Assembly: GCF_003334815.1 (NCBI RefSeq)
Contig: NZ_QOWO01000040.1
DNA: 33,548 nucleotides
Origin: Escherichia coli
GTDB lineage: Bacteria > Pseudomonadota > Gammaproteobacteria > Enterobacterales > Enterobacteriaceae
Strand: one strand, 5' to 3'
The translations under genes and the position numbers were made by a program. Position 1 is the first letter of the stretch; the number at the start of each line of letters is the position of its first letter. Shown one piece after another: positions 269 through 971 of the stretch. The notes beneath the pieces are model-generated. The model made no database searches and was not told where the DNA came from. It saw nothing but the letters and a program-made list of their open reading frames with translations.

Positions 269-301
269 CTCTGACCGGAGGAAGATACTCTACATCCAAC
301 A
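269..301. repeat. 33-bp direct repeat, copy 1 (ctctgaccggaggaagatactctacatccaaca)
   Basis: Matches 517-549 with 4 mismatches. Confidence 0.6.
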
Positions 302-506
302 TCCATAATATTATGGTACTGGACACTCGTTGTCTAGTTTGTGCCTTCAGATTGTTAGTCAATAATAATTTCTTTAAATGAATTTTATGCGTGCCTCTGT
401 ATAATCTTTGTGTTGGCGCTGTACTGTGTGCTTTCCCCTTGCTTCTAAACCCTGCGCTATCTGGGTATGAACGAATTAAAGTCCTGGCTGAACAACAGGT
501 GGTGCT

Positions 507-722
507 GTGTTCAGTGCTCTGGCAGGGGGAAGGTACTCTACATCCAACAATGTGAGAGAGCTGTTGCGACAGGCGATGTATGAGCAAGCAATGGTGACTT
601 CCTCCAGTGTTAACCTGGAGAAACGGATGATTAACCTGTTAATCATCGTTCTCAGAGCTGTGGTCGCCGTTGCAAACGCGCTGATTGCAATTCTGGAACT
701 GATTCGCCAGTTCATCGACTGA
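507..722 (+). CDS. Hypothetical small protein with hydrophobic C-terminal segment; true start uncertain (in-frame ATG at 576)
   Basis: ORF track; weak RBS; overlaps direct-repeat copy 2. Confidence 0.3.
   Translation: MFSALAGGRYSTSNNVRELLRQAMYEQAMVTSSSVNLEKRMINLLIIVLRAVVAVANALIAILELIRQFID
517..549. repeat. 33-bp direct repeat, copy 2
   Basis: Matches 269-301 with 4 mismatches. Confidence 0.6.
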
Positions 723-743
723 TGACAGCGGAAACGTAACTAA

Positions 744-770
744 GGGCAGGAAGTGAACCGCTTCCTGCCC
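744..770. other. Perfect 10-bp-stem hairpin (gggcaggaag / cttcctgccc) between two small ORFs
   Basis: Read directly; no T-run follows, so more likely regulatory or RNA-processing than a simple terminator. Confidence 0.4.
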
Positions 771-791
771 TTTAACAAAAAAGGAGGATTT

Positions 792-971
792 ATGGATTTT
801 ATGAGCATTTTGGGGCGCTGTTTACTTCTTCCTTTCCCTGTTGCGATGTTTGTCGGTTGCCTGTTTCCTGGCATCGATGATCGCTTATCCGGAATGCTTA
901 TGAGTGTTGCTGTGGGATGTTTATCGTGGTATGTCACCAGACCGAAGAACCAACAGACAAAGGCCGCGTAA
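792..971 (+). CDS. Small hydrophobic (membrane) protein, about 59 aa
   Basis: AAGGAGG RBS about 6 nt upstream of ATG at 792; track ORF 753..971 begins earlier in the same frame. Confidence 0.4.
   Translation: MDFMSILGRCLLLPFPVAMFVGCLFPGIDDRLSGMLMSVAVGCLSWYVTRPKNQQTKAA

Follow-up and report, generated by a model that had tools for sequence, protein, structure and literature searches.

The dinQ-like (dql) family of type I toxins was defined and named in 2016 (PMC5066626). In the dinQ-agrA/agrB locus of E. coli K-12 (PMC3567139, PMC5066626), a divergently transcribed sRNA carries at its 5′ end a 32–33-nt antisense segment, the target of which lies ~90–120 nt into a long 5′ UTR that contains elements 1–4 and a hairpin around the GGAG Shine-Dalgarno sequence; the gene ends in a terminator that follows GGAAACGTAAYTAAGG. 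In the primary dinQ transcript element 1 pairs with element 2, leaving element 3 to sequester the Shine-Dalgarno sequence; loss of the first 44 nt allows element 2 to take element 3, so that the Shine-Dalgarno sequence opens, and AgrB, by binding over element 2, re-closes it and permits cleavage by RNase III (Kristiansen et al. 2016). On plasmids, the agrB-dqlB locus of pOXA-48 (IncL) encodes a toxic DqlB against which agrB protects by pairing, and loss of the plasmid results in killing; repression disappeared with a 4-nt mismatch in agrB and returned with a compensatory change (Nat Commun 2025, PMC12365149). The same study found dqlB in 53% of IncX plasmids (PMC12365149), and the agrB-dqlB locus of the IncX3 plasmid pOXA-484 is toxic and stabilises a test plasmid (Nat Commun 2025, PMC12317039).

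The hok/sok system (parB of plasmid R1) is likewise a plasmid-borne type I addiction system that combines an unstable antisense RNA with a small membrane toxin; Sok is encoded in cis, over part of the mok/hok leader, and exerts its effect through a leader ORF. In tisB/istR-1, zorO/orzO and shoB/ohsC, a trans-acting sRNA is encoded beside the toxin gene, not overlapping it, and pairs far upstream of the start codon, and the toxin mRNAs need processing (PMC5397157).

Here we describe a locus at the start of a 33,548-nt stretch of E. coli DNA, hereafter the window. We conclude, with a probability of roughly 0.93, that positions 207–775 of this IncX4-type plasmid form a plasmid addiction module, a type I toxin-antitoxin pair agrB-dqlB that belongs to the dinQ-like (dql) family. 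Membership of the toxin and the sRNA in their families, the complementarity between the sRNA and the mRNA and its covariation, the fold of the closed state and the conserved terminator were computed here; processing, cleavage by RNase III, toxicity and post-segregational killing would be expected from the published relatives. The features to which the text refers are as follows.

207–301, minus strand: AgrB-family antitoxin sRNA gene, ~93–97 nt, assigned by Rfam homology and fold.
207–245, minus strand: predicted Rho-independent sRNA terminator, with a U-run after a stem of 16 bp, A-U pairs included.
268–301, minus strand: repeat copy 1, the putative antisense segment with which the sRNA 5′ end recognises its target.
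308–336, minus strand: predicted sigma-70-like promoter of the sRNA (TAGACA, 17-nt spacer, TAATAT).
400–405, plus strand: dqlB −10 element TATAAT, with transcription probably starting at ~410–412.
412–775, plus strand: dqlB mRNA, with a ~215-nt 5′ UTR, coding sequence and terminator, as predicted from promoter and terminator positions and homology to dinQ.
431–442, plus strand: 5′ UTR element 1, paired with element 2 (522–533) in the minimum free energy (MFE) fold.
516–549, plus strand: repeat copy 2, the putative AgrB target site in the dqlB 5′ UTR, which includes element 2 (522–533).
598–620, plus strand: predicted Shine-Dalgarno-sequestering hairpin (element 3, 598–607; element 4, 615–620; Shine-Dalgarno GGAG, 617–620).
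627–722, plus strand: dqlB, encoding a 31-aa single-helix hydrophobic type I toxin, MINLLIIVLRAVVAVANALIAILELIRQFID, by NF041473 and RefSeq annotation.
742–772, plus strand: dqlB terminator (3′ stem-loop), a 12-bp perfect stem, then UUUAAC.
792–971, plus strand: ORF2, encoding a conserved, predicted small membrane protein of 59 aa, with the Shine-Dalgarno sequence AAGGAGG at 782–788.
958–981, plus strand: hairpin over the ORF2 stop codon, AAAGGCCGCGTAAGTGGCCTTTAATT, a possible terminator.

The locus compared with described systems

The window shares with the K-12 dinQ locus the divergent sRNA with its 5′ antisense segment, the target site in a long 5′ UTR, elements 1–4, the GGAG Shine-Dalgarno hairpin and the terminator after GGAAACGTAAYTAAGG, and the 33-nt repeat of the K-12 dinQ-agrA-agrB locus lies at the same two places as that of the window. 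The K-12 locus differs in encoding a shorter, 27-aa toxin, in having a LexA box, which the window lacks, and in having a second, inactive sRNA, agrA, where the window has a single sRNA (an Rfam search of the window found no second, agrA-like sRNA). The antisense sequences of the two loci differ at nine positions, all of which are compensated.

Resemblance to pOXA-48 extends to the size of DqlB (31 aa; the window toxin is identical to that of the IncL/M locus in 25 of 31 residues), a divergent upstream sRNA with ~33–35 nt of complementarity to the 5′ UTR, the position of the terminator and the carriage of the locus on a conjugative resistance-type plasmid. The sequence of the pairing region, however, differs from that of the window; the IncL/M sRNA is missed by the Rfam AgrB model at E ≤ 1, whereas the window sRNA passes the gathering threshold; and in IncL/M trbC follows dqlB directly, with no ORF2. 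With pOXA-484 the window shares an IncX-group backbone and a DqlB with a predicted AgrB and no agrA, but the IncX subgroup differs and ORF2 was not seen there. In records of IncX3 size (43–46 kb) the match is confined to the right half of the locus, with ~77% identity.

To tisB/istR-1, zorO/orzO and shoB/ohsC the window locus has no sequence or family relationship: among Rfam models searched against the window, OhsC reached 22.1 bits against a gathering threshold of 50, over the terminator region only, and IstR and OrzO gave no match. Unlike hok/sok, the window has its sRNA gene 215 bp away, with no overlap with the mRNA and no mok-like ORF, and Hok (NCBIfam) and Sok (Rfam) had no match in the window.

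Plasmid context and the two genes of the module

The first 1.4 kb of the window has matches in ~3,000 enterobacterial plasmid records, and in related plasmids RefSeq labels the same ORF dqlB, "DinQ-like type I toxin DqlB". Full-length matches to the window are IncX4 conjugative plasmids of 31–35 kb (pSH146_32 is typed IncX4), and the end of the window joins its start, so that the window is an entire circular plasmid, a conjugative one of the IncX4 type. For comparison we assembled 16 further dql/dinQ loci from seven replicon types, in most of which AgrB could be located.

On the minus strand, positions 299 to 207 match the Rfam AgrB family (RF02891) over the full model (1–84) with 55.6 bits against a gathering threshold of 40 (E 2.5e-8), the sole gathering-level Rfam match across the whole window. 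Homology places the 5′ end of the sRNA at 299, and promoter spacing allows 299–303. The sRNA folds at −33.5 kcal/mol (z −4.76) into an internal stem-loop and a terminator as in the Rfam consensus; the terminal hairpin is present in both the MFE and the centroid folds and aligns to the terminator of the Rfam model, and a conserved core, CAGAGCCACCAACUCA, is common to the sRNAs of the window and of E. coli K-12. The promoter-like site at 308–336 has 9 of 12 consensus matches and lies 7–9 nt upstream of the homology-defined 5′ end, which suggests that it serves as the sRNA promoter. The sRNA gene (301–207, minus strand) lies upstream of the dqlB −10 element (400–405, plus strand) in a divergent, non-overlapping arrangement, with the predicted promoters back to back.

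The original prediction, which had considered a small-toxin or RNA-regulated locus with two small hydrophobic ORFs of uncertain coding status, is supported, both descriptions applying to the locus. Both ORFs were found (627–722, 31 aa; 792–971, 59 aa), and the first of them encodes a DqlB-type toxin: MINLLIIVLRAVVAVANALIAILELIRQFID matches NCBIfam NF041473 (DinQ_rel, DqlB) with 72.4 bits against a cutoff of 35, over residues 1–31 of 31, and falls below the cutoff for DinQ proper (NF041472, 25.1 bits against 30). Comparison of 15 loci showed that the GGAG, the 6-nt spacer and the ATG of dqlB are invariant, whereas the in-frame stretch upstream of the ATG ranges from 8 to 87 codons and is not conserved; the 31-aa product is thus the conserved one. 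The 71-aa ORF at 507–722 was accordingly set aside as a protein, being a non-conserved upstream extension of dqlB, and a 39-aa ORF at 262–381 was rejected in the same comparison.

The −10 element of dqlB occupies the position of the dinQ −10, TATGAT, in E. coli (PMC5066626, Fig. 3 legend), and the sequence at the promoter, GTATAATC, is kept between two otherwise diverged alleles. The motif tgtataat, placed at 401–408 and proposed as an extended −10, is indeed present and contains a perfect −10, TATAAT; its actual position is 398–405, and it is not an extended −10, because the canonical TGnTATAAT needs TG at 397–398, where the window has CT (the TG is off by one base). A consensus promoter scan found no good −35 for dqlB. 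Neither CTGT-N8-ACAG (at most one mismatch) nor CTGNNTN7CAG occurs within positions 1–1400, which rules out LexA/SOS control of the dinQ kind and argues for the constitutive addiction typical of dql over SOS-induced dinQ. An IncI dqlB is reported to have a weak "SOS box" at −119; its counterpart here, window positions 484–500, is 1 nt shorter and fails the pattern, and this segment falls inside a stem of the UTR.

Downstream of dqlB, the arms at 742–753 and 761–772 form a stem of 12 bp with 100% complementarity and a 7-nt loop, the core of which is the perfect 10-bp hairpin that the original prediction had noted at 744–770; the chance expectation for such stems in the window is ~0.012. All 17 dql/dinQ loci have a GC-rich stem-loop after the conserved GGAAACGTAAYTAAGG, a few bases past the stop codon, and the stems differ in sequence and are always self-complementary, with a UUUAAC or UUUAAU tail. 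Homology between plasmids stops just past this hairpin, and the comparison identifies 742–772 as the predicted terminator and right boundary of the module. A scan had listed the hairpin as a minus-strand terminator, a reading we rejected, since a hairpin at this place forms the conserved 3′ end of each dql/dinQ gene examined. With three U only, the terminator is weak.

The two repeat copies as antisense segment and target

The 33-bp direct repeat of the original prediction (269–301 and 517–549, with 4 mismatches) was recovered as two 34-nt copies at 268–301 and 516–549 (88% identity, 4 mismatches, spacing 248). Chance alone would give 2.6e-5 direct pairs of 33-mers with at most 4 mismatches in 33.5 kb, and no further copies with up to 3 mismatches occur in the window. 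Since the AgrB match is on the minus strand, copy 1 is the 5′ antisense segment of a leftward sRNA gene; copy 2 is positionally homologous to dinQ G88–A119. The suggestion of RNA regulation thus finds its counterpart in the repeat itself, as the pairing module of an AgrB-family sRNA and the toxin 5′ UTR. The earlier reading had missed the role of copy 1 as part of an sRNA gene read from the other strand.

Over 33 positions, the sRNA and the UTR form 29 Watson-Crick and 3 G:U pairs with 1 mismatch (32 of 33 paired); three of the four mismatches between the copies become G:U pairs in the sRNA/mRNA orientation, and the remaining one is A-G. The duplex energy in this orientation is −67.2 kcal/mol, 13.6 better than in the opposite one (−53.6), and complementarity is perfect over 16 nt in the variable seed region, with the duplex as a whole less perfect than that of E. 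coli agrB/dinQ (1 mismatch).

We then aligned the pairing segments of 12 loci, representing the seven replicon types and E. coli K-12 dinQ/agrB. Paired cells made up 92.2% of the alignment against 41–45% with slid partners, a percentage inflated by the choice of copy 2 in the other loci as the best match to copy 1. Both sides were altered in a compensatory manner at 17 of 33 pairs, and none of 500 shuffles reached the observed covariation score, counts that are not probabilities because the rows are related sequences. The best-match choice does not inflate either the fixed position of the site or the asymmetry among transition-type mismatches, of which 28 were G:U and 6 A:C. In each locus the best match of the sRNA 5′ segment is the homologous UTR site, and cognate duplexes average −47.9 kcal/mol against −30.4 for non-cognate ones. 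The IncL/M and IncN loci had no Rfam AgrB match even at E ≤ 1 and so could not be added to this set.

The right-hand 16–20 nt of the pairing segment are free to vary between loci while matching within each locus; the alignment indicates a segment that is hypervariable between plasmids yet always self-matched, in agreement with the mismatch and compensation experiment on pOXA-48. The window locus itself departs from the standard IncX4 locus across ~282–520 (73–83% coverage, ~90% identity) between flanks that are 99–100% identical, and the differences include two seed substitutions that are compensated in both repeat copies. Its pairing class is that of the IncHI2 and IncX1 loci. The allele is rare (3 plasmid records at 99% identity or more), and its sharing at 99% is limited to E. 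coli KV7 plasmid V. The plasmid thus carries a non-standard allele, of the IncHI2/IncX1 class instead of the usual IncX4 class.

Folding of the dqlB leader and a proposed mechanism

The MFE fold of the mRNA from ~412 pairs 431–442 with 522–533 and 602–607 with 615–620, and the Shine-Dalgarno sequence has a probability of being unpaired of 0.01 or less in the full-length mRNA. The geometry of elements 1 and 2 is that of dinQ U16–C28 and G94–G106, and a control fold of E. coli dinQ from +1 gave the same duplex and a closed Shine-Dalgarno sequence. In 5′-truncated window mRNAs (starts at 440–480) the Shine-Dalgarno sequence was still closed in every fold; an 8-bp duplex between elements 2 and 3 (525–532 with 598–605) is possible, at 4.9 kcal/mol above the MFE. 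For the E. coli mRNA from +44, the MFE fold leaves the Shine-Dalgarno sequence unpaired, not via the 2:3 duplex, which lies 3.5 kcal/mol above the MFE.

By analogy with the published relatives, we propose that two back-to-back promoters would fire outward from an AT-rich spacer, the leftward one giving an AgrB-like sRNA of ~95 nt from the minus strand and the rightward one a dqlB mRNA of ~360 nt with a long 5′ UTR, the predicted first 31–33 nt of the sRNA being complementary to UTR positions 516–549. The primary mRNA would be inert, with element 1 (431–442) holding element 2 (522–533) and element 3 pairing with the Shine-Dalgarno sequence; 5′ processing would free element 2 to capture element 3, thereby opening the Shine-Dalgarno sequence; and AgrB, on element 2, would re-close the Shine-Dalgarno hairpin and offer a substrate to RNase III. 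On loss of the plasmid the unstable sRNA would decay first, DqlB, probably a 31-aa inner-membrane helix, would be made, and the cell would be killed or arrested.

Alternative explanations

The locus might instead be what is left of an agrB-dqlB module, decayed or silent, an allele that no longer kills or protects. Four positions of the duplex are not Watson-Crick pairs, the −35 of the dqlB promoter is weak, folding in silico does not favour an open Shine-Dalgarno sequence, and the exact allele is rare, all of which would suit a relic. We nevertheless consider this improbable: the toxin ORF is intact, with a score double the curated cutoff; the Shine-Dalgarno sequence and its 6-nt spacing to the ATG, the terminator, and the structure and promoter of the sRNA are all intact; the 16-nt seed is perfectly complementary; and the same specificity class is retained on IncHI2 and IncX1 plasmids.

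Two further readings, each of which we regard as very improbable, take the repeat for something other than an antisense RNA and its target. Lying between genes on a plasmid that also has other iterons, the direct repeats could be sites that act at the DNA level (iterons or protein-binding sites), or the neutral leftover of a duplication, with no RNA–RNA function; against this stand the inclusion of copy 1 in an AgrB match that passes the gathering threshold on the other strand, the bias of mismatches towards G:U in the sRNA/mRNA orientation (28 against 6), the joint change of both copies between loci amid conserved flanks, and, in pOXA-48, the loss of repression with a 4-nt mismatch and its restoration by compensatory change (PMC12365149). 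Alternatively, the repeat could encode a peptide motif, AL-x-GGRYSTSN, with which ORF 262–381 and the 71-aa ORF 507–722 would both begin, the longer ORF being the real toxin precursor. Each copy is indeed in frame with an ORF, two of the four mismatches are synonymous in that frame, and the 71-aa ORF shares its frame with DqlB. What decides against a precursor is the variable length of the upstream extension beside the invariant GGAG-N6-ATG, a 2-nt indel that cuts the extension in the standard IncX4 allele, and an NCBIfam match that covers only residues 41–71 of the long ORF; moreover, annotations often wrongly give Dql peptides a longer N-terminus (PMC5066626).

A second small gene downstream of dqlB

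Coding status had been left uncertain for both small ORFs. Both are coding, with the second lying outside the toxin-antitoxin pair proper, and both proved to be conserved in related plasmids, the check that had been proposed at the outset. Against homologs of 75–85% nucleotide identity, ORF2 has a dN/dS of 0.12–0.43 with no indels and a conserved stop codon, and none of its first 20 residues varies even though the codons show synonymous changes; these comparisons argue that it is genuinely coding and under purifying selection. An ORF at 753–971 is a mechanical extension of ORF2 that starts inside the dqlB terminator hairpin.

Homologs of ORF2 reach down to ~50% identity. No family match was found in Pfam, NCBIfam, PHROGs or PADLOC, and the family is tiny: among 1.84 billion representatives only 18 clusters were recovered, most of them holding variants of this one protein or pieces of it. 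An AlphaFold model has helices at 3–23 and 30–49, at low confidence (pLDDT 63). A lipoprotein reading, from FVGC at residues 20–23, was rejected because the Cys is replaced by Ser in two homologs (P0020 and P0044). In all contexts examined (IncX4, IncX1, IncHI2 and other contigs), ORF2 lies 66–69 nt past the dqlB stop codon, a spacing that holds even for the ~50%-identity homolog, and the downstream neighbours differ. In PLSDB, dqlB matches 4,828 records and ORF2 713, of which 666 have a contiguous dqlB and ORF2; ORF2 is thus present in only ~14% of dqlB-carrying plasmids, and most IncX4 records leave it unannotated. The hairpin at 958–981, listed on the minus strand by the scan, keeps its pairing through changes in three of the compared loci (L004, L005 and L017).

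These observations raise the question of whether ORF2 belongs functionally to the module as a third part, for example as a second toxin or by modulating DqlB from the same transcript, and is not an unrelated passenger. The fixed spacing despite the divergence of ORF2, the 666 contiguous records, and the purifying selection favour such a role, as do the lack of any promoter-like site between dqlB and ORF2 by scan and the three-U terminator; with no promoter-like site before it, ORF2 may be expressed by read-through of the dqlB terminator. However, ~86% of dqlB-matching plasmids, including those with the validated IncL/M module (L015), are without ORF2, which indicates that the dqlB/AgrB pair works without it; ORF2 has a strong, unregulated Shine-Dalgarno sequence, unlike a type I toxin, and matches no family; and the linkage could reflect shared descent of one block. 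We therefore regard as unlikely an extended agrB-dqlB-ORF2 module on IncX1/X4/HI2-type plasmids, in which ORF2 would be a co-transcribed third part, expressed by read-through, subject to mRNA decay triggered by AgrB, and modulating the action of DqlB at the membrane or providing a second membrane-directed activity. Our main reading is instead that ORF2 is a separate gene for a small membrane protein, situated directly downstream of the agrB-dqlB module. The linkage of dqlB and ORF2 is the only mildly new point and offers a modest lead.

Implications

The agrB-dqlB locus is an already known system, annotated by PGAP and detected by Rfam; the module having been described and annotated, the finding adds no new biology of its own. 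The small additions are that ORF2 is a genuine gene, conserved and in tight linkage with dqlB, that the pairing segment is hypervariable and self-matched, and that the plasmid carries a non-standard allele. Among the major carriers of resistance genes are the IncX4 plasmids, and the module is a likely reason for their persistence without selection. The repeat, as an antitoxin–target pair, offers a direct handle for curing strategies in which the sRNA is supplied or blocked. As a modest lead, the hypervariable 16-nt seed may define mutually orthogonal specificity classes; if the sRNA classes are orthogonal, co-resident plasmids could keep independent addiction.

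A possibly recombined agrB-dqlB allele

Sequence comparison with pSH146_32 (L002), a standard IncX4 plasmid, revealed that positions 282-520 of the window are diverged, within surrounding IncX4 sequence that is 99-100% identical. The diverged patch spans the 5' end of the antitoxin sRNA gene agrB, the intergenic promoters and the initial portion of the 5' UTR of the toxin gene dqlB, and the agrB-dqlB allele of the window is matched by IncHI2/IncX1-type loci and not by L002. The confinement of the divergence to this patch suggests that the allele was replaced through recombination.

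Repeats and a putative mobile element of the plasmid

Repeated and inserted sequences of the plasmid include the following.

33472-33548 joined to 1-72: insertion of ~154 bp, missing from related IncX4 plasmids
994-1009 and 1122-1137: perfect 16-nt inverted repeat (TTTAGTTACAACATTC / GAATGTTGTAACTAAA), spacing 112 nt
1210-1375, 2033-2075 and 33260-33310: clustered GTGACATACA / GTACATCA iterons
5478-5609: tandem array of five 22-bp iterons (ACCGAGGAAGTTATCATGTTTA), adjoining the minus-strand ORF 4394-5266
6210-6509 and 8290-8589: direct repeat with identical copies at least 300 nt long, 2,080 bp apart

The insertion, which lies ~135 bp from the sRNA terminator, has terminal inverted repeats of ~30-38 bp that start with GGGG and end with ACGCTAAG, and is bordered by a 5-bp target duplication (GTAAT, at 33467-33471 and 73-77). 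Over its left 82 nt it matches ends of annotated Tn3-family transposons at 100% identity. The insertion resembles a miniature (non-autonomous) element derived from Tn3. Downstream of ORF2, the sequence between the arms of the 16-nt inverted repeat is C-rich in part and contains a GC hairpin (~1077-1099); in plasmids that lack ORF2, the same TTAGTTACAA motif directly follows the dqlB terminator, often adjoining a resolvase gene. The inverted repeat with the sequence between its arms may constitute, or be left over from, a res-like site.

The GTGACATACA / GTACATCA iterons flank the gene for a ParA-like ATPase (1385-2032) and its small partner ORF (2107-2376), occur also after the hns-like gene, and are probably partition (centromere/operator) sites. 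The 22-bp iterons and ORF 4394-5266 presumably represent the replication origin and initiator gene. ORFs 6630-7145 and 7250-7792 are bracketed by the large direct repeat.

Diversity of dql antitoxins

Among the loci collected from other plasmids, L005 (IncX1), L006 (IncX4, 63.7 kb) and L009 contain AgrB-like sRNA genes, dqlB genes or both as tandem pairs, with a separate pairing sequence for each copy. The sRNAs at L006 903-987 and L009 1957-2042 had no matching target within the retrieved stretch, and are either orphan sRNAs or agrA-like. The Rfam AgrB model gave no match in L013 (IncN) or in L014 and L015 (IncL/M, pOXA-48-like), even at E<=1, despite the experimental demonstration of a functional agrB on pOXA-48 (PMC12365149). 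The diversity of dql antitoxins is therefore only partly covered by the Rfam AgrB family.
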